Positions 21,751 to 55,998 of a stretch of DNA of 64,000 nt are shown piece after piece; the stretch's first letter is position 1, and every line of letters begins with the position of its first letter. The stretch spans positions 4,960,001-5,024,000 of the forward strand of contig OX597820.1 of NCBI GenBank assembly GCA_951406725.2, given 5' to 3'. A program made the translations under genes and the position numbers. The notes beneath the pieces were generated by a model that made no database searches, had not been told where the DNA came from, and saw only the letters and a program-made list of their open reading frames with translations. The stretch is from Octopus vulgaris (Eukaryota).

Positions 21751-24632
21751 TGTAGTAGTGGTGACAGTCATGCTTCACAATTTTTGACTGTAGCAAGATG
21801 ATTGATTCTGTGCTATAAATACAGCTGGGAGAGGCTCCAGAGTGCGAGGTTTTGCAAACTGTATTCTGACCAATCAGTGTGTAGTATCACTCAATTACTT
21901 AAGCTGATTGGTTGGTTGAGCTGATTGGTTTAGGCGTCACGCTTTGTTGGACATGTCAAGAGTCCTGTATCTTAACCCTGGCTGAGGCAGCAATTGTTGG
22001 GCTATTTTTAGAAATGTTGTAAATAGCCTTTGTCAGAGATTTTTATATTTTTATATTTCAATTGTCATCATCATCATTGTCAGCACCTTAATTATTGTTG
22101 CTAGTAGTGATGGTGGTGGCAAGAGAACTTTTAACCCTAAATAAGATAATTTTCCTGCTATCTTCATCTTGATCACCTTTAGTATTGTTGTTGTTGTTAG
22201 TGGTCATGGTCGTAGCAGTAGAAGTTTTAGCTTCGAATGACGCCACCCCGCTGGCTAAGCGAGCAGGTTAATATATATATACTACTAATATAGGATTAAG
22301 TTTTTTTAACAGACAAAAAATTCCATAAAAAAATGTGGCAGCATATTAAAATACCTTTACAGTTAAAATTATAAACGGTTATATTACGGTTAAAATTATA
22401 AGTTGTACATACATATATATATATATATTGGTGTGGAGGCGCAATGGCCTAGTTGTTAGTGCAGCGGACTCGCGGTCGTAGGAACGCGGCGGTTTCGATC
22501 CCCAGACCGGGCGTTGTGAGTGTTTATTAAGCGACCCCCCCCACACACACACGCATACACACAAGCAAGGACACAACAAGAATAAGCACACAGAGGAACA
22601 AGCGCGCACGCACAACCCATTAGCTTTCTCTTCCCAATTGACAAGCCAACACGTGGTCACGGAAATGACCGATTCAGTGTTTACATTATTTCGAGTTAAA
22701 ACGAAAGATTGCTATATATATATATATATACATATGTGTGTGTGTGTGTGTGGTAAATGAGAGACGGAAGATGGAATATACGAGAGTTTTTATTATTAAT
22801 CACGACAATTGTTTCGACACATCTAGCATCGATCCCTCACTTAACCCGGTTCAGAAGCATCCGGTGAAGATGTATATCACATCGGGTGATGATACAACTC
22901 GTTAAAATAGATACAACTCAAAAAAATAACAGCTCCGCAACGTGTCTTCTCATTTCTTAGAATGAAAAGTAGCAAAACGAAGACAATATCTTCATTTACT
23001 TAGAAGATCAAAAATAATATCACAGATGCAAAGAAGAAACGAACACGCAATACAACGAGAAGAGTATTAAAAATAACCGTTAACTAAGATCGAAGTATAA
23101 ACGCCCTCGCGCAAGCTACATGGTGCATGTACTCTCGCTCATACAAGCATCCACGAAAATGTAAACATACACACACATGTGGTTTGGTGAACTCACGATC
23201 AAAAAGCGAATTAAATAGTTCATTGGTGTTTATAAGAATGAGGAGGTTAGAACTAAACTTCATTCATCCGTACCGAATTGTAAATTATGTTTAATAGATA
23301 CTCAAATTCACTCCCACAGCATTTAGCGAAAGTCCGTTTAAATGCATTTAGACATGTTGAGAATCTTTCAGAAATTCTATTAATGATCTTCTCATGTGTC
23401 CACTTTTCGGTCGCAAAGTGTTCAATATTGTTCGATATACAGTTAATAGAGAGCATTATGTACAAAAACGAGATAATCATACAACATGTGTGGTGTTCAA
23501 TAAATACATGCAAAAACATGGATATTAATGGTCACATTGATATCGATATCAATAAGCAACAAAAATTTCTTTTTTTTTTTTTTCTCCAGTTTCATGCAAA
23601 AGATTTTATAAGTTAACAAGGAGAGAAAACTGCTCTCGATGGCAAATCATATTTTGTTTGAATTATTCTCGGTTACCAACATGGAAAGATGTTTGATCAA
23701 GGTTTACCGTCATAGGATTACAAAAGAATGAGAAAACCGAAATTGCACTTACCTTATTTAATACTCTAACACGATTGCCCGTGGCTCGTTGGGCCACCAA
23801 TAGTTCAAGGTATCCGAAAATATCGCGTATCTCAGGGAATCCGTGGTCTGATTTACGCGAAACTTATTCTATTCCGTTTGTATTCACATTTCAATGGTGC
23901 CCTACTTTCAGAGAATTTTCCCAATATGCACCCAATATATATTAAATTACAGACAAGCAAGTAATCACAGACTTTTAATAGTAGACAGTCCACCACCTCT
24001 GACCGGAGAGTAGTGCTCAATATTTCCAAGTAAAACCCTCAGTGGTCGGAAAGCAGAAGTTCTAGGGTTTAAGACGGCATTTTTTGTGTACATCCACGTT
24101 TTATATAGTCAGAGAATCCATTAGAATCTAGACGCATCAACACGGTGGACGCCAGGAATGGCTACGCACCATAACATTGAATTCACAGCGAAGTAAAATA
24201 ACATTTAGGCATTATTTGTTGGTTGTATACAGCAGGTGTATATGTACTAATCCAATATAAAACGTAGATCCGATTCAGGGCTTGTTCCAGGTGTGGGATG
24301 CAGTAGTTGTAATAACTGGTACCACAGAATTAGTTATTAAAATTTCAAGCTCCAAGATATCAGTCTGGATACTAAGTACGCCATAGATATTCCGAATTTA
24401 CTGGTAGGTGAACAGAAAAAAAAAAATTCTGGATGGCCAGAAGCAGATAATATACGGAGAAGAAAAGTGGAAAAAATATCGAACATTTCTTCGCAATTGT
24501 GGGGAAGGGATGTAAGGGGAGGTGGTTATCTGCTTTTAGAATTAGAATTCAACAGAAGGTTAATGATAAATTACAGAATGGCAACAGTGTAAATTACACG
24601 GTCAGGTGTTCGAATTCGCCATGGTTCTGTAT

Positions 24633-24792
24633 ATATTTCTTTATTGCCCACAAGGGGCTAAACATAGAGGGGACAAACAAGGACAGACAAAGGGATTAAG
24701 TCGATTACAACAACCCCAGTGCGCAACTGGTACTTTATTTATCGACCCCGAAAGGATGAAAGGCAAAGTCGACCTCGGCGGAATTTGAACTC
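24633..24792 (-). mobile_element. SINE family A, 3' part
   Basis: Reverse complement of family A from the B box to the tail. Confidence 0.88.
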
Positions 24793-25053
24793 ATATTATG
24801 GTGAATGTTCAGAATGGTGTATTTTGCAGGTGTTTCTCTCTCGCTCCAAATCTCTTGTTTATAAAACACAATTATATGTGTCTGTGGAAGGTTAATAAAT
24901 AAATCGAATGAAAACAGAAATAACAAAAAAAAAATAAAGGAAAGAAATAATGAATAGAAATTTTATTTTTTAAATGAAGTCTCTTGTGTTCACGAAGCAA
25001 TGTGGTTGTAAGTCTATACACACACATACACACACCATAATATATAAACCATT

Positions 25054-25169
25054 AAGGCGGCGAGCTGGCAGAAACGTTAGCACGCCAGGCGAAATACTTA
25101 GCGGTATTTCATCTGTCGCTACGTTCTGAGTTCAAATTCCGCCGAGGTCGACTTTGCCTTTCATCCTTT
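25054..25169 (+). mobile_element. SINE family A, 5' half (tRNA-like head)
   Basis: AGGCGGCGAGCTGGCAGAAACGTTAGC ... B-box-like GAGTTCAAATTCC; breaks off at CATCCTTT. Confidence 0.9.
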
Positions 25170-25222
25170 TTTACACTTTTTCTGTTTTGGCGGCCGTTTT
25201 CGGTCTGTCAGACAGAAAGGAA

Positions 25223-26638
25223 ATGGACTATGAGTCTCTAACAGACTTGTCCACGACAGATGAGGAACTGGAACAGGCAATTGCAATGAAGCTGATGGAA
25301 GAAAAGGCTGGAGTTTTCGAGTCTTTATCAGACTTGCCTACGTCTGAGAAGGAGCTAGAAATGGCAGCAAGGAATTTGGAAGAGAAGCTGGGTTATACCT
25401 ATGCCGGTGTAACCAAGAAGGCGGAAGAGAAAGGGGTCGACATGGCCAAGTTGACAAGTTACCAGAAATACATGAAAAAGGAAAGCGGTGAGGTGGAACT
25501 ATCACCGACACCCAGGAGAAAAGAATGGTATGATAAGAGGACCATTATGTACAGGGTGTTCGCAAACGAAAGGAAGAGGGTAGAAGTTGTAACCATGGAA
25601 TGGATAGAGGAAGCCCTGCGAAGAACTGAGGAGGAAATAAATTTTCTGACTCGAGGATCCAAGTACGGTACCGTAGTTGTGCATTTCAAAACTGAGTCTG
25701 CAGCGAGGAAGATGGCGGCGAAGGCGGTGAAGTCAGAAAAGGTAACCCTATTACCTACGTATTTAAACAGGAGGATTACACGAATAAGGGTGGAGGGAGT
25801 GCCACCAAACGTGGAGGCAGAATGGATTGTGGCGGCTGTGATCAGCGGCCACGAGGACGAGGTGGATATTCTCCATGCCTCGGTTAAGTCCGAGGGCTGG
25901 AGAGGCGTAACAGTGGAGCTGAACGTACAGGCAGAGACCGAGGTACTGGTGGACCTGACGGAAAGCATCAGACTGGGAGACGTGATCATGAGAGTGTGGG
26001 TGGAGGGCAGGGCTCCACGTTGTTACAAGTGTGGCCTGAGGGGTCACATAAGAGCCTTCTGCCCTCCCCCAGGGAAAGAAACGGATTCCGAACCAGAGAG
26101 AGAGAAGCAGAAACCAGAGGAGAAGGAAACAGAGGAAGAGAATACACAGAAATGGAAGGAAGCTGGAAGTAAGAGGAAGAGAAGAATTCGTGGAAAAGAA
26201 AATAATATGGAACTCCAATCTACCCCAAAACCACCCACACCCTCTGAGTCCCACCCTATCCATGCAGACATTGAACCCACCCGCTCCCCCCCAACAAGAA
26301 AACAAAAGAAAAAAAAAGAATACACACACACAAGAGATTGAAATCGAACCCAGGCCGTACATTTGTACTATGACTGAACAGAGGGAAGTTAAAAGTCTAA
26401 TGGAAGAGTATAAACGGTATGATGTTGGAGAGACTAGGTATGCTGTGATTGAAAAAAGAACATAGGTGAGTTTATGGGGAGGTGTGAAAGGGAGAATTGG
26501 GAGGTGAAAGATATAAGAATGAGCGATGAATTCGTGGAAAATATGAATGAGTATTTCGGAGTAAGAATGGATATGGAATTTATTCGTATTGGCAAAGAAC
26601 ATTCAAGTGACTATGAAAAACAAAGGACAGGTAAGTGA
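25223..26638 (+). CDS. Gag/ORF1-like nucleic-acid-binding protein, copy 1 (acidic repeat N-terminus, RRM-like region, CX2CX4HX4C knuckle); two compensating 1-nt frameshifts in A-rich runs
   Basis: Starts MDYESL at ATG 25223. Contains GTVVVHFKTESAA, ITRIRVEGVPP and VEGRAPRCYKCGLRGHIRAFCP (knuckle at 26021-26062), a layout typical of L1/Tx1-type non-LTR ORF1. The consensus of the three copies continues to ...EKQRTGK* (~471 aa). Confidence 0.8.
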
Positions 26639-26986
26639 TGCTGACGGACGGGGCCGTTGGTATCGCTTTCATTTTATCATTTTTTTCGTTTAACACTTCA
26701 TGTTCATATAGTTTAATTATAATGTTCTATGTCCCCATGTTTTGTTATGTCCGCCGTTCTTCGTAGCCCCTTAGTGGGTAATAAAGAAATAGAAATTCGG
26801 CAACGAATTTTGAAGGAGTCGGTCGTGTTTTTTTACGCTCGTAAAATTCGGTAAAAAAGAACAAAAGGCGTTGTTGTTGTTGTGGAAATTCTGAACGGCG
26901 TTGACGCGGTTTCGCGTTTCGCTCGTTCAGCGCGTTACACTTTTTCTGTTTTGGCGGCCGTTTTCGGTCTGTCAGACAGAAAGGAA

Positions 26987-28394
26987 ATGGACTATGAGTC
27001 TCTAACAGACTTGTCCACGACAGATGAGGAACTGGAACAGGCAATTGCAATGAAGCTGATGGAAGAAAAGGCTGGAGTTTTCGAGTCTTTATCAGACTTG
27101 TCCGAGAAGGAGCTAGAAATGGCAGCAAGTAAATTGGAAGAAAAGCTGAGTTATACCTATGCCGGTGTAACGAAGAAGGCGGAAGAGAAAGGGGTCGAAA
27201 TGGCCAAGTTACCAAGTTACCAGAAATACATGAAAAAGGAAAGCGGTGAGGTGGAACTATCACCGACACCCAGGAGAAAAGAATGGTATGATAAGAGGAC
27301 GATTACGTACAGGGTGTTCGCAAACGAAAGGAAGAGGGTAGAAGTTGTAACCATGGAATGGATAGAGGAAGCCCTGCGAAGAACTGAGGAGGAAATAAAT
27401 TTTCTGACTCGAGGATCCAAGTACGGTACCGTAGTTGTGCATTTTAATACTGAGTCTGCAGCGAGGAAGATGGCGGCGAAGGCGGTGAAGTCAGAAAAGG
27501 TAACCCTATTACCTACGTATTTAAACAGGAGGATTACACGAATAAGGGTGGAGGGAGTGCCACCAAACGTGGAGGCAGAATGGATTGTGGCGGCTGTGAT
27601 CAGCGGCCACGAGGACGAGGTGGATATTCTCCATGCCTCGGTTAAGTCCGAGGGCTGGAGAGGCGTAACAGTGGAGCTGAACGTACAGGCAGAGACCGAG
27701 GTACTGGTGGACCTGACGGAAAGCATCAGACTGGGAGACGTGATCATGAGAGTGTGGGTGGAGGGCAGGGCTCCACGTTGTTACAAGTGTGGCCTGAGGG
27801 GTCACATAAGAGCCTTCTGCCCTCCCCCAGGGAAAGAAACGGATTCCGAACCAGAGAGAGAGAAGCAGAAACCAGAGGAGAAGGAAACAGAGGAAGAGAA
27901 TACACAGAAATGGAAGGAAGCTGGAAGTAAGAGGAAGAGAAGAATTCGTGGAAAAGAAAATAATATGGAACTCCAATCTACCCCAAAACCACCCACACCC
28001 TCTGAGTCCCACCCTATCCATGCAGACATTGAACCCACCCGCTCCCCCCAACAAGAAAACAAAAGAAAAAAAGAATACACACACACAAGAGATTGAAATC
28101 GAACCCAGGCCGTACATTTGTACTATGACTGAACAGAGGGAAGTTAAAAGTCTAATGGAAGAGTATAAACGGTATGATGTTGGAGAGACTAGGTATGCTG
28201 TGATTGAAAAGAAGAACATAGGTGAGTTTATGGGGAGGTGTGAAAGGGAGAATTGGGAGGTGAAAGATATAAGAATGAGCGATGAATTCGTGGAAAATAT
28301 GAATGAGTATTTCGGAGTAAGAATGGATATGGAATTTATTCGTATTGGCAAAGAACATTCAAGTGACTATGAAAAACAAAGGACAGGTAAGTGA
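26987..28394 (+). CDS. Gag/ORF1-like zinc-knuckle protein, copy 2 (6-bp in-frame deletion; frameshift in C/A runs near 28045-28072)
   Basis: ORF track 26882..28096 plus 27948..28394; same motifs as copy 1. Confidence 0.8.
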
Positions 28395-28741
28395 TGCTGA
28401 CGGACGGGGCCGTTGGTATCGCTTTCATTTTATCATTTTTTTCGTTTAACAATTCATGTTCATAAAGTTTAATTATAATGTTCTATGTCCCCATGTTTTG
28501 TTATGTCCGCCATTCTTCGTAGCCCCTTAGTGGGTAATAAAGAAATAGAAATTCGGCAACGAATTTTGAAGGAGTCGGTCGTGTTTTTTTACGCTCGTAA
28601 AATTCGGTAAAAAGAACAAAAGGCGTTGTTGTTGTTGTGGAAATTCTGAACGGCGTTGACGCGGTTTCGCGTTTCGCTCGTTCAGCGCGTTACACTTTTT
28701 CTGTTTTGGCGGCCGTTTTCGGTCTGTCAGACAGAAAGGAA

Positions 28742-30157
28742 ATGGACTATGAGTCTCTAACAGACTTGTCCACGACAGATGAGGAACTGGAACAGGCAAT
28801 TGCAATGAAGCTGATGGAAGAAAAGGCTGGAGTTTTCGAGTCTTTATCAGACCTGCCTACGTCTGAGAAGGAGCTAGAAATGGCAGCAAGTAAATTTGGA
28901 AGAGAAGCTGGGTTATACCTATGCCGGTGTAACGAAGAAGGCGGAAGAGAAAGGGGTCGACATGGCCAAGTTACCAAGTTACCAGAAATACATGAAAAAG
29001 GAAAGCGGTGAGGTGGAACTATCACCGACACCCAGGAGAAAAGAATGGTATGATAAGAGGACCATTATTTACAGGGTGTTCGCAAACGAAAGGAAGAGGG
29101 TAGAAGTTGTAACCATGGAATGGATAGAGGAAGCCCTGCGAAGAACTGAGGAGGAAATAAATTTTCTGACTCGAGGATCCAAGTACGGTACCGTAGTTGT
29201 GCATTTCAAAACTGAGTCTGCAGCGAGGAAGATGGCGGCGAAGGCGGTGAAGTCAGAAAAGGTAACCCTATTACCTACGTATTTAAACAGGAGGATTACA
29301 CGAATAAGGGTGGAGGGAGTGCCACCAAACGTGGAGGCAGAATGGATTGTGGCGGCTGTGATCAGCGGCCACGAGGACGAGGTGGATATTCTCCATGCCT
29401 CGGTTAAGTCCGAGGGCTGGAGAGGCGTAACAGTGGAGCTGAACGTACAGGCAGAGACCGAGGTACTGGTGGACCTGACGGAAAGCATCAGACTGGGAGA
29501 CGTGATCATGAGAGTGTGGGTGGAGGGCAGGGCTCCACGTTGTTACAAGTGTGGCCTGAGGGGTCACATAAGAGCCTTCTGCCCTCCCTCAGGGAAAGAA
29601 ATGGATTCCGAACCAGAGAGAGAGAAGCAGAAACCAGAGGAGAAGGAAACAGAGGAAGAGAATACACAGAAATGGAAGGAAGCTGGAAGTAAGAGGAAGA
29701 GAAGAATACGTGGAAAAGAAAATAATATGGAACTCCAATCTACCCCAAAACCACCCACACCCTCTGAGTCCCACCCTATCCATGCAGACATTGAACCCAC
29801 CCGCTCCCCCCCAACAAGAAAACAAAAGAAAAAAAGAATACACACACACAAGAGATTGAAATCGAACCCAGGCCGTACATTTGTACTATGACTGAACAGA
29901 GGGAAGTTAAAAGTCTAATGGAAGAGTATAAATGGTATGATGTTGGAGAGACTAGGTATGCTGTGATTGAAAAGAAGAACATAGGTGAGTTTATGGGGAG
30001 GTGTGAAAGGGAGAATTGGGAGGTGAAAGATATAAGAATGAGCGATGAATTCGTGGAAAATATGAATGAGTATTTCGGAGTAAGAATGGATATGGAATTT
30101 ATTCGTATTGGCAAAGAACATTCAAGTGACTATGAAAAACAAAGGACAGGTAAGTGA
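28742..30157 (+). CDS. Gag/ORF1-like zinc-knuckle protein, copy 3 (+1 near 28895, -1 in A-run near 29830)
   Basis: ORF track 28637..29011, 28896..29891 and 29888..30157 together reproduce the consensus protein. Confidence 0.8.
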
Positions 30158-30310
30158 TGCTGACGGACGGGGCCGTTGGTATCGCTTTCATTTTATCATT
30201 TTTTTTCGTTTAACAATTCATTTTCATAAAGTTTAATTATAATGTTCTATGTCCCCATGTTTTGTTATGTCCGCCATTCTTCGTAGCCCCTTAGTGGGTA
30301 ATAAAGAAAT

Positions 30311-30527
30311 CAGAAACGTTAGCACGCCGGGCGAAATGCGTAGCCGTATTTCGTCTGCCGTTACGTTCTGGGTTCAAATTCCGCCGAGGTCGACTTTGCC
30401 TTTCATCCTTTCGGGGTCGATTAAATAAGTACCAGTTACGCACTGGGGTCGATATAATTGACTTAGTACCCTTGACTGTCATTGTTTGTCCCCTCTATGT
30501 TGAGCCCCTTGTGGGCAATAAAGAATT
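30311..30527 (+). mobile_element. SINE family A lacking first ~15 nt
   Basis: CAGAAACGTTAGC...GGTTCAAATTCC...GAGCCCCTTGTGGGCAATAAAGAA; matches the other family A copies in the window. Confidence 0.92.
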
Positions 30528-30618
30528 AAATATATAAACCATTGTGTATCTGAACATCTGACCATGCAATTAACAGTTCAACCATTTTGTAATGTGCGTG
30601 TGTGTAAATGTGTGTGAA

Positions 30619-30851
30619 TACGAGGGGTTTCTGGAAAGTTCCTGGTTTTAAGGGTGTCACGAAAGGCCTGATTGGAGGCCCAATATTCCAAATTCCTTTA
30701 CGGGGCTTAGAAAAACTGAAGGACCACTGCAATAAGTGTGTGAATCTGAGAGAGGGGAATAAGTTGGATACAATTATAATTAACTAATTCCTCCTCTATC
30801 TTCTTTTACCCAAAGCCAGGAACTTTTCAGCACCCCCTCCCCCCCTTCATA
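30619..30851 (+). mobile_element. Non-autonomous Tc1/mariner element (MITE)
   Basis: TIRs TA-CGAGGGGTTTCTGGAAAGTTCCTGG / CCAGGAACTTTTCAGCACCCCCTC. The internal GLEKLKDHCNKCVNLR-GE resembles a mariner transposase C-terminus. Confidence 0.75.
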
Positions 30852-30991
30852 CGTAAAATTACACGTGTTTCAATGATTTATAAAGAAAAATTAAGAATTC
30901 CTCAAAATTAATCGATATATTGTAATTGTTAGGTTCGAGGGTTCAAATCTTGCTTCAGCTTTCTTTAATGACGTTTTGAAATGTTATAGAT

Positions 30992-31217
30992 TTATTTCCT
31001 TATTGCTCACAAGGGGCCACACACAGAGGGGACAAATAAGGACAGACAAAAGGATTAAGCCGATTACATCAACCTTCAGTGCGTAACTGGTACTTATTTA
31101 ATCGACCCCGAAAGGATGAAAGGCAAAGTCAACCTCGGCGGAATTTGAACTCAGAACGGCAGACGGCATACCGCAAGGAAGTTCACCCGGCCTGCTAATG
31201 CTTCTGCCAGCTCACCG
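30992..31217 (-). mobile_element. SINE family A
   Basis: Reverse complement of near-full family A. A more degraded relative follows at ~31240-31405. Confidence 0.85.
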
Positions 31218-31532
31218 TTTTGAAATGTTATATATTATGGACTATTTACGTTCGACCCAGAGTACGATTTAAAACTGTATCTGAGGTACTTATGTTAACG
31301 CCCCGAAAAGATTAATTTCAAATCAACCGCGGTGAAACTTGAACTCAGATCGTAAAAGCAGATGAAAATTAGTTTGTCTGGCGTGCTAACGATTCTGCCA
31401 ACGCGGTGGCTTCAGTAGATACTCCTGTTAATACTGATTTTTCAGTGGACACGATATTGCTGCCCAGGTAACTAAACTCGTTGATATTAAATCTCACATT
31501 GCTAAGGCTTGGGCAGCTTGCAGAAGATGCTG

Positions 31533-47128: not shown

Positions 47129-48370
47129 AGTTAGTTAGTTAGTTAGTTAATTTGGCTCAAAAGCAAATAGCAAGGCCATGTAGGGGGACATGGAGTTAAG
47201 TACAGGGTGGTGTTCATGTAAAGAGTTCAGGCCACTTGAGGTCCAGGGAGGCTTTGAACAAAGCGGTCGTCGGCATCTTCACCATCTCGTCTGGCAGCTT
47301 GTTCCACGGATCCGCAACCCGGACGGAGAAAGCTCCTCTCCTTCGATTGAGATGAAATCGTCGCAGGTAGAGCTTTTCGGAATGACCCCGCAGCCGACGC
47401 TCCGGAGCAGGAGTGAAGAACAGCTCTTTCGAGAGGTTACACTTCCCGCTTATGATGTTGTGGGCGAGAATGAGATCACCACGGCGGCGGCGTTTTTCAA
47501 GAGAACAAAGGTCGAGCGTCCTCAGCCTTTCTTCGTAGGACAAATTTTTGAGACCATGAACCATGCGGGTAGCCAGCCTCTGGACTCTTTCGAGGTGCTG
47601 TATGTCTTTGAGGAGATAAGGAGAAGAGGCTTGAATCCCATACTCCAATATGGGTCTCACCAGCGTGACATAGAGTGGCAGGAATATGGCTGCTGTGAGC
47701 ATTCCGAATGACCGTTGAATCAAAAACAGAATTCCGCGCGCCTTGTTGGCAGCATGGACGCACTGGGCCGAAGGCGAAAAGGAGGAATCCACCAAGATAC
47801 CCAGGTCCTTTACCTGATCGGTCCTCTCCAGCAGCAGACGACCCGGCTCGAAATCAAGTTGAGTTGCAGGAGTAGAGCCGACAGGCAGATGACAGCACTT
47901 CGACACGTTCAGACACAGGTCCCAATCGTTAGACCACTTCCAAATTTGGTGGAGGCATCGACGAAGATCCTCTATACTACCGCGAGGAGCGACCAGTTTG
48001 ATATCGTCGGCAAATAGAAGGGTGTGTTGCGTAATGTCGTCGGGCAAGTCATTTATGAAGACTAAGAACAACAAGGGCCCAAGCACTGAACCTTGAGGCA
48101 CGCCACTGCTCGCACTGGAGACGTCGGACCGCGAACCATTAACTTGAACTTGGAAGGAGCGATCTGAGAGGAAGGCACCAACCCATCGTACAATATCCGG
48201 ATAGAAACTATATGCTTGAAGCTTGACAAGTAGTAGGCGGTGGTTTACCGAGTCAAAAGCTTTGGCAAAGTCCAATAAAACGATGTCAACAGCATCACTA
48301 TCATCGAGGATGCGCGTCATCAATTCTTCCATTACTAGTAAGTTGGTCAAGCATGATCTCTTCGGCACGA
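47126..48370 (-). mobile_element. 5'-truncated CR1/L2-group LINE; uninterrupted 384-aa RT and C-terminal frame (47214-48368); (TAAC)n tail; inserted in (TA)n
   Basis: RT motifs LDFAKAFDSV, SGVPQGSVLGPLLF, LLFADD, VKDLGI and LERVQRLAT; (GTTA)n at 47126-47150. Confidence 0.95.
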
Positions 48371-55019: not shown

Positions 55020-55998
55020 TATTTCTTTTTTCTAGTTTCAGCTCAGAGCTGCGGCCATGCTGATGCACCGCCGTTTTGTGCTACACTCTTATTACGAAGA
55101 ACCTCCTCTAATATGTGGCACTTGGTGAAGAATGGAGTTTGATATAGCTACTCTCATTTGCACCACTTGCCGTGAGGTAGGTTCATCTGGGACTCTTGAC
55201 AGGAAGATGTCCAGCTTTGATTTAAAAACACCTACATCTACTTTGTGCAAGTTCCTCAGACTCTTTGGGAGTATATTAAAAAGCTGTGGGCCCTTGAAAC
55301 TCAGGCTGTTGCAGAAGCTGGTCCTGAAGCGTGATGGCATTGCTAGGATCTTTGGCACTATGCAGTGTCGTCCCGTTCTAGCGTTGGTGTAGCTTACAAT
55401 GCCAAAATTTGGCACAATTCCTTCCAGGATCTTCCAGACATATATTACTGCATACCTCTCCCATCTTCTCTCCAGGGAGTAGAGTCTTAGCTGTTTCAAC
55501 CTTTCCCAGTAGCTGAGCTGTTGCAAAGAGATGATCTTCTTTGTGAATCTTCTCTGGATTGCTTCAAGGTCCGCTGTTAATTTTACACTGGTGGGTGACC
55601 ATAGCTGTGAGCAGTAATCCAGGCGACTGAGGATGAATGTCCGCCAGAGGACCATCATGGTTTCCTTATCTCTGGTTCTGAATGTTCTTAGGATCCACCT
55701 AGCCGGTCGTCTGCACTTTGTCGCCATCCTGGTAATGAGCACTTGGAAAGAGGTATCATCACTTATGTCTATACCCAGGTCCCTCACAGACTTAGGCTCT
55801 GGGATTGAAATTCCCTGTGGACCGGTGTATCCTGTAAGTTTAATATTCAGTTTTGGATGCTGGTAGCGCAGGGCCTGGAATTTTTCAGCATTAAACTGCA
55901 TAGTTATTATCCTCAGCCCATCTGTAGATTGAGTCCAACTCCTGCTGCAGGTGTGCAACATCGCTGAGGTTCTGTATTTTCTGCGAGACTTTCGTATC

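Follow-up and report, generated by a model that had tools for sequence, protein, structure and literature searches.

The window analysed here, a 64,000-nt stretch of the Octopus vulgaris genome (assembly GCA_951406725.2, contig OX597820.1, positions 4,960,001 to 5,024,000 of the forward strand), contains a head-to-tail array, or train, of three copies of a retroelement, family A, whose single open reading frame (ORF) codes for an ORF1 protein (Table 1). The units lie on the same strand and are 98.7–99.1% identical over aligned columns, and the 1.76-kb unit has a leader of 196 nt and a 3' untranslated region (UTR) of 152 nt. Both internal junctions are identical, AATAAAGAAAT being followed directly by AGAAATTCGG. 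The zinc knuckle CYKCGLRGHIRAFC was found in the window unit, and no reverse transcriptase (RT), long terminal repeat (LTR; judged by self-comparison and region maps) or terminal inverted repeat was detected in it. An earlier note on this DNA had described head-to-tail units with a ~195-nt leader, a ~150-nt 3' UTR, identical junctions, the knuckle and the lack of RT, LTR and terminal inverted repeats, all of which is borne out. The units abut, as it also stated, but its "no spacer" needs amending, because the first ~30 nt past each internal junction are imported. They comprise 13 nt of the target site in a second Helitron-like repeat (Helitron-B) and a piece of the head of a long interspersed element (LINE1), both otherwise missing from the window; the junctions therefore originated at another locus. 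The note overlooked the flanking heads of short interspersed elements (SINEs) and the 15-bp direct repeat enclosing the composite.

Table 1. Features of the family-A train and its surroundings (window coordinates).
Feature	Position	Strand	Remarks
Left 15-bp direct repeat	25039..25053	+	Target-site duplication of the whole composite; exactly two occurrences in the window
SINE, head only, ~113 nt	25056..25169	+	A T-run links the SINE head to unit 1
Unit 1 (family A)	25171..26790	+	5'-truncated, begins at unit position 145
Unit 1 ORF	start 25223	+	Frame broken near 26309 (A-run) and 26455
Unit 2	26791..28546	+	Full length
Unit 2 ORF	26987-28394	+	Broken in C-run (28043) and A-run (28065)
Conserved ORF1 core, unit 2	27158..27830 (approximate bounds)	+	Two predicted RRM domains and a CCHC zinc knuckle, assigned via the intact relative P0001
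C-terminal ~95-aa alpha/beta domain of ORF1, unit 2	28100..28394	+	Without clear fold match
Unit 3	28547..30311	+	Full length
Unit 3 ORF	start 28742	+	Broken at 28895 and in A-run (29828)
3' tail, unit 3	30268..30311	+	GCCC..GGGY hairpin and AATAA; common to LINE1, LINE2, families B, C and D, and the SINE
SINE without first 14 nt	30312..30528	+	Junction at the recurrent site GGC/AGAAACG
Right 15-bp direct repeat	30529..30543	+	Partner of the copy at 25039
3' fragment of another LINE	47214-48332	-	RVT_1, E 2e-22
3' fragment of another LINE	55092-55961	-	No match in Pfam

Eight of 99 positions differ between the two SINE heads, which are alike over their first 17 nt and match different subtypes among 26 SINE copies. 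Their interpretation as a 99-bp target duplication was considered and ruled out by the eight differences, which are alleles of the two subtypes. No tRNA gene was found in the window, and Rfam gave nothing credible for 24500-31500. The train could have been assembled by serial addition of units at the SINE site, in which case the last unit would have switched template onto another SINE RNA, or it could have entered ready-made in a single event; a template switch onto the second SINE probably finished it.

Family A is dispersed through the genome. A 34-nt pattern for the knuckle has 215 exact matches in 2.8 Gb, and a control pattern has none, so that the unit is not confined to this locus, a possibility the earlier note had raised. 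A same-strand neighbour lies at most 2 kb away for 73 of the first 100 matches listed, which fall into 43 loci, each with 1 to 14 units, spread along the contigs. Only two of the 43 are less than 1 Mb from a contig end (hand count), and the arrays are accordingly interstitial, not telomeric. We mapped 52 regions comprising 51 loci, the first 19 chosen by BLAST rank (20 of 596 candidates scored) and the rest from contigs C1-C8. In the mapped regions no family-A copy continues into an ORF2, the other outcome that the earlier note had envisaged. Besides LINEs, the trains contain at least five ORF1-only families, arranged head-to-tail in the same direction, and the largest has 14 units in ~23 kb. 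Family A is also present in short-read contigs of four runs under two organism labels, and named ORF1 homologues occur in O. bimaculoides, O. sinensis and Argonauta.

Some mapped arrays have features of their own. A distant ORF1 family, E (413 aa), is tandemly arranged on the minus strand at L061:377-4120 with a period of ~2.5 kb, a repetitive leader and a different tail; no ORF2 lies between its two copies, and a family-A train is 1.3 kb away. The train at L158-L160 holds an inverted truncated unit, the sole opposite-strand unit inside any train seen. At L075 one unit is bracketed by near-duplicates of a ~70-nt flank with several mismatches, and three internally deleted units of 1.2 kb come next. 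A protein search returned five matches, all partial O. vulgaris gene models. Among the public models, P0004-P0008 join parts of ORF1 to host exons, one of them with many host domains; these fusions are probably mis-annotations, exonisation being the possible alternative. Trains are mis-modelled as host genes and could pass for tandem gene duplications.

Pfam alone misses the ORF1 protein: the knuckle scores E 0.07-0.08, under the cut-off, and Transposase_22, the type II ORF1p domain, gave no match. An AlphaFold model of the core of P0001, a natural intact copy, reached a pLDDT of 92.6 from 73 sequences and is best matched by tandem-RRM proteins (best Foldseek E 9e-6); its first RRM aligns with La (VIA Z 9.4, rmsd 2.5 over 81 residues). 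By this model the protein is of type I, which is defined by RRM and CCHC (PMC5203782), with RRM-RRM followed by one knuckle, and the "RRM-like region" of the earlier note becomes two predicted RRMs. The Atlas pointed to ZCCHC3-like clusters, which we take as a lead only. For the C-terminal domain, 10 sequences gave a model with a pLDDT of 81, with two of the five models below 50; the best Z is 5.0, Foldseek has no match at E 0.001 and the Atlas none, and a new fold is not demonstrated by these values. The core of family A shares 60% identity with families B1 and B2 and 25–38% with families C, D, E and three LINE ORF1s; the ORF1s of the three ORF2-bearing LINEs account for 33–35%. Core dN/dS is 0.10 for A-B1 (where dS is near saturation), 0.19 for B1-B2 and 0.27 for variants found in at least five loci, as against 0.61 for singletons. 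These sequence comparisons, which the earlier note had suggested and which gave 0.10-0.27, show purifying selection on the ORF1 frame. Since lineages devoid of RT have long kept ORF1 under selection, the protein would appear to benefit its own element in cis. Dispersal, lack of ORF2 and purifying selection together support the description in the earlier note of a young, protein-coding, ORF1-only, RT-less non-LTR element.

Its claim of one ~471-codon ORF in each complete unit does not hold in the window, where the longest ORFs are 372, 369 and 309 aa and none reaches 471 codons unbroken. Each window unit carries two indels of 1 nt; of these six, four fall in a C-run or A-run. Natural intact copies of 471/472 aa were found elsewhere in the genome. 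An ORF of at least 445 aa occurs in 28 of 99 near-full copies. The set has eight nonsense changes and 97 frameshifting indels in homopolymer runs, which make up 7% of the ORF, as against 54 elsewhere; 83 of originally 137 non-homopolymer frameshifts lie in the first 70 nt and were set aside because they reflect a variant N-terminus. The commonest homopolymer length class is the in-frame one (30/77), and short-read contigs carry one extra A in the runs at 28065 and 29828, which restores the commonest, in-frame length. It is therefore probable that many of the frame breaks are read errors. Nanopore reads underlie a public assembly of O. vulgaris that may or may not be the one used here (PMC13282606).

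The enzymes for mobilization are likely provided by LINEs found in the same trains. One train holds a full LINE with an ORF1 of 463 aa and an open ORF2 of 1130 aa that comprises an APE endonuclease, an RT and a C-terminal zinc motif; the closest solved structure to this ORF2 is human L1 ORF2p (E 3e-64), R2 scoring E 6e-21. A second LINE of 5.3 kb, with copies 97–100% alike, is frequent in trains. Judged by ORF2 domains, type I ORF1 and target preference (more than 20% of flanks in one repeat), these partners are classified as L1/Tx1-type, a double label used because the searches returned no named Tx1 sequence; cluster names gave no LINE clade name. The LINEs, families A-D and the SINE have in common a tail with a 4-bp hairpin and AATAA. 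The stem is invariant and consequently offers no covariation support, and a tail common to a LINE and its passengers is expected for tail-recognizing LINEs (PMC4176376). Full-length L1/Tx1-type LINEs with a related ORF1 and the same tail are thus the likely RT donors, and family A likely borrows their endonuclease and RT in trans. Solo copies have target duplications of 15–17 bp, which were clear in four of 15 non-Helitron insertions tested, three of the four being 5'-truncated. The left junctions of L079, L080 and L076 contain short inverted copies of the head (for example CACGAC before GGTCGTG), resembling snap-back additions.

Insertions are concentrated at few sites. One position in a 1-kb Helitron-like repeat, Helitron A, hosts 29 of the 51 loci, and 16 of the 32 in the set that was not BLAST-ranked; the second Helitron-like repeat holds two further loci and the SINE site three, the remaining 17 being elsewhere or having ends that the mapping did not reach. 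Across the genome, Helitron A contributes 1034 exact empty sites and 159 tail-ACMTGG junctions. The second Helitron site has eight exact junctions, occupied by LINE1, B-like and A units, and the SINE site six, occupied by A, C-like and LINE copies. Of the long young copies of LINE2 (30 loci), 13 of 14 end at the Helitron A site or at a family member before it. At filled Helitron junctions ACATGG stands in 89 of the first 100 listed, compared to 27 of the first 100 listed empty sites (Fisher p 8e-20, hand counts). The host repeats begin with TC and end in a hairpin and CTAG, as read from their sequence; these are the termini by which non-autonomous Helitrons are recognized. Four family units only 0–0.13% apart sit in Helitron copies 4.0–5.8% apart, and four B2 units 0.5–1.4% apart in copies 4.0–5.9% apart. 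With hosts so much more diverged than their inserts, the insertions must have been separate and later than the spread of the host.

Helitron A itself (L107:~990-2030, 1044 bp), of which a 24-mer has 1327 exact matches, contains a decayed piece of an ORF1, and the hot site falls within this piece. In a shorter variant lacking it, the equivalent position is occupied by older LINE2 copies (L195, L196). A reading of GATTTGAAC at the Helitron site as a B-box was rejected, as the motif lies in codons of the decayed ORF1 piece. SINE copies at L137, L141-L144 and L162 often end in a junction starting with GGTA, in SINE-SINE arrays and elsewhere, which resembles the junction memory of ORF1-only units described below.

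Once established, trains extend at the heads of their members: 85 of 109 family-A 3' ends adjoin the head of a family member, a count that omits an uncounted number of ends lacking a tail within 260 nt or having less than 100 nt of flank. For 65 of 88 train units the nearest relative lies at a different locus. Distances of A units and of the B2 units downstream of them are uncorrelated (rho -0.12, p 0.71, 9 loci). Trains also form in single-copy DNA, and at C4b, in near-unique DNA, four of five units are closest to units elsewhere. At C14 the upstream flank is single-copy, and exact repeats of its last 36, 49 and 64 nt stand in front of three units of two tail types 1.7% apart. This pattern would result if the nick for each newcomer lay shortly upstream of the resident, so that flank and head were both copied. 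From these comparisons we infer that trains grow mostly by separate insertions at the same sites, with local duplication in a minority of them. Taken as a whole, the explanation we hold with good confidence is a dispersed family of ORF1-only elements in the octopus, with an ORF1 type and tail in common with LINEs, that likely borrows their enzymes and forms trains mostly by repeated same-site insertion.

Several observations weigh against it. The nearest relative is in the unit's own train for 23 of the 88 units, some neighbours being only 0–0.07% apart (L105, L091), and local duplication therefore also contributes. Median distances within and between trains differ little (1.9 vs 2.5%). The window units are mosaics of variants, as gene conversion or mixing of assembly consensus could produce, and either process could be behind part of the "nearest relative elsewhere" signal. 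Of the 15 tested insertions, 11 have no clear short duplication. No LINE with an ORF1 close to that of family A was seen, hence no direct parent, and the deep nodes of the ORF1 tree (27 rows, using 18 of 150 listed matches) are weak. Finally, the loci were sampled by BLAST rank for the first 19 and from contigs C1-C8 only for the others.

How sites are chosen is a separate matter. The bases directly after the tail follow the donor lineage: one tail ending is followed by CG in heads (31 units), another by ACAT, AGAT or AGAA sites (15), and a third tail type mostly by GCTC, a few bases off in the same heads (12/19). Among 58 same-tail units, which represent about six lineages and not 58 events, 42 share their junction class with the nearest relative elsewhere (shuffle mean 19.3, 0 of 2000 shuffles reaching 42). 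The AATAAA signal lies only 6–8 nt from the element's 3' end. Poly(A) cleavage occurs downstream of its signal, so that transcripts would include some downstream sequence and are expected to reach into the neighbour of the donor. In the mechanism we propose, ORF1p would act in cis as RNA chaperone, hence its conservation, and a LINE ORF2p would recognize the tail hairpin and prime at a loosely specific nick. A founder would land at the Helitron site, the SINE site or in ordinary DNA; later copies would land tens of bases from the resident's 5' end, often duplicating the local flank at length, and read-through RNA would pair with DNA matching the donor's downstream neighbour. That read-through past the tail sharpens site choice in this manner is a tentative proposal, which we slightly prefer to site choice by DNA recognition through ORF2p. 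The latter has a reasonable but uncertain claim, and tethering by ORF1p or open chromatin seems rather unlikely. The wider idea of a self-guiding system, in which read-through RNA with a memory of the donor's neighbour steers a borrowed L1/Tx1 enzyme to matching DNA, lineages therefore lock onto the Helitron site, the SINE site or the 5' ends of one another and form trains like those of HeT-A away from telomeres, and the niche repeatedly breeds ORF1-only parasites, is speculative, and we regard it as doubtful.

Targeting might instead be the work of the LINE protein alone, the endonuclease of each lineage reading an extended site and each insertion regenerating a usable one, so that family heads would merely resemble or adjoin the Helitron A, Helitron-B and SINE sites. 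Such behaviour is known from Tx1, including tandem copies of SINEU around a duplication (PMC4494074), and it would fit the ties of LINE1 to the Helitron-B site, of LINE2 to Helitron A and of another LINE to the SINE site, the ACATGG enrichment reported above, and the presence of RAAATTCGGYAAA both in family heads and at the Helitron-B site. It accounts less well for the fact that the three sites have little in common past a pyrimidine-purine step, that nicks near heads are scattered over ~170 nt, that units of one tail type differ in site by lineage, and that single-copy DNA hosts growing trains with nicks in the flank. We treat targeting by protein alone as a serious contender that falls short of being probable.

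Single-event origins fare worse. Trains could be multi-unit read-through transcripts or template-jumping products, subsequently altered by gene conversion. The window composite invites this view, enclosed as it is by a single 15-bp duplication, with two SINE subtypes and junctions from another locus, and with the 3' end of unit 1 and the body of unit 2 both matching one unit at C17a; moreover, identical junction types occur on different chromosomes. It is at odds with the lack of covariation between neighbouring A and B2 units, the recurrence of local single-copy flank between unlike units, and the nearly universal full length of the leftmost units of Helitron trains, one train extending to 14 units, and we judge it improbable. 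Even less credit, close to none, can be given to capture and spread of an ORF1 train by a Helitron, or to local tandem duplication or an assembly artefact. Most loci are indeed Helitron-hosted, the Helitron holds a decayed ORF1 piece and frameshifts concentrate in homopolymers, but the divergence of hosts (4–6%) relative to inserts (0–1.4%) already contradicts these explanations, train make-up varies locus by locus, 22 of 51 loci lie outside Helitron A, and the family recurs in the short-read contigs.

The preferred explanation, repeated insertion at the same sites with borrowed enzymes, has partial precedents. A preferred site in a DNA transposon, with tandem passengers around a duplication, is described for Tx1 of Xenopus (in Tx1D) and for crocodilian Tx1-Mar with SINEU (PMC4494074), in line with the preference of Tx1 for DNA transposons (PMC3747384). 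The octopus system likewise comprises a LINE that prefers one site in a DNA transposon and non-autonomous passengers in tandem, but its hosts are Helitron-like elements and a SINE, its passengers code for protein, and the 5' ends of these passengers in single-copy DNA serve as further points of train growth. Helitron-like elements are thereby added to the apparent targets of L1/Tx1-type LINEs. In R1Bm and SART1Bm, annealing of the RNA 3' sequence to the target aids accurate priming (PMC7265360); there, one fixed target is used, whereas the octopus lineages have several lineage-specific targets and the role of RNA is a proposed one. If true, steering by read-through RNA would mean that RNA influences retargeting in a natural system, which would bear on gene insertion with retrotransposons. 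Our literature search turned up no account of ORF1-only families in molluscs, of Tx1-type LINEs that target Helitrons, or of mixed trains at interstitial sites. The paper on repeats of O. vulgaris gives only totals for L1-Tx1 and Helitron, with no "ORF1" in its supplement, and a catalogued consensus may exist in Repbase, Dfam or the deposited library, which were outside this comparison. HAL1-like coding, Tx1 transposon targeting and tandem insertion hence each have precedents, and their combination into HeT-A-like trains away from telomeres was not found in the literature.

The earlier note had likened the element to HAL1 and HeT-A. HAL1 of mammals is non-autonomous, encodes ORF1p only and has several origins (PMC5753468). 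Family A agrees with it in having a single ORF homologous to a LINE ORF1, no ORF2 and a 3' end common to an autonomous LINE, and in the dispersal of its copies, which are 5'-truncated and flanked by target-site duplications (clearly so in 4/15). It differs in an ORF1 of RRM-RRM-CCHC type (type I) instead of Transposase_22, a conserved tail instead of poly(A), and its strong site preference and mixed trains. HeT-A-type telomeric elements are likewise ORF1-only, with repeated loss of ORF2 (PMC5537684; 10.1101/2025.06.09.658640), and also form same-direction head-to-tail arrays that mix ORF1-only and RT-bearing elements. The octopus arrays, in contrast, are interstitial with endonuclease-type duplications, the 3' UTR is short (152 nt) and without poly(A), and the partner is L1/Tx1-type, not Jockey. 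Of the comparison in the earlier note, the likeness to HAL1 holds for the mode of working and that to HeT-A for the architecture only. The octopus trains thus decouple ORF1-only head-to-tail arrays from telomere maintenance, with which they are joined in Drosophila, and with a young system free of telomeres, the reasons for the success of ORF1-only elements in arrays and the function of their conserved ORF1p become open to test. The octopus element works like HAL1 and is arranged like HeT-A, and it is a member of neither.

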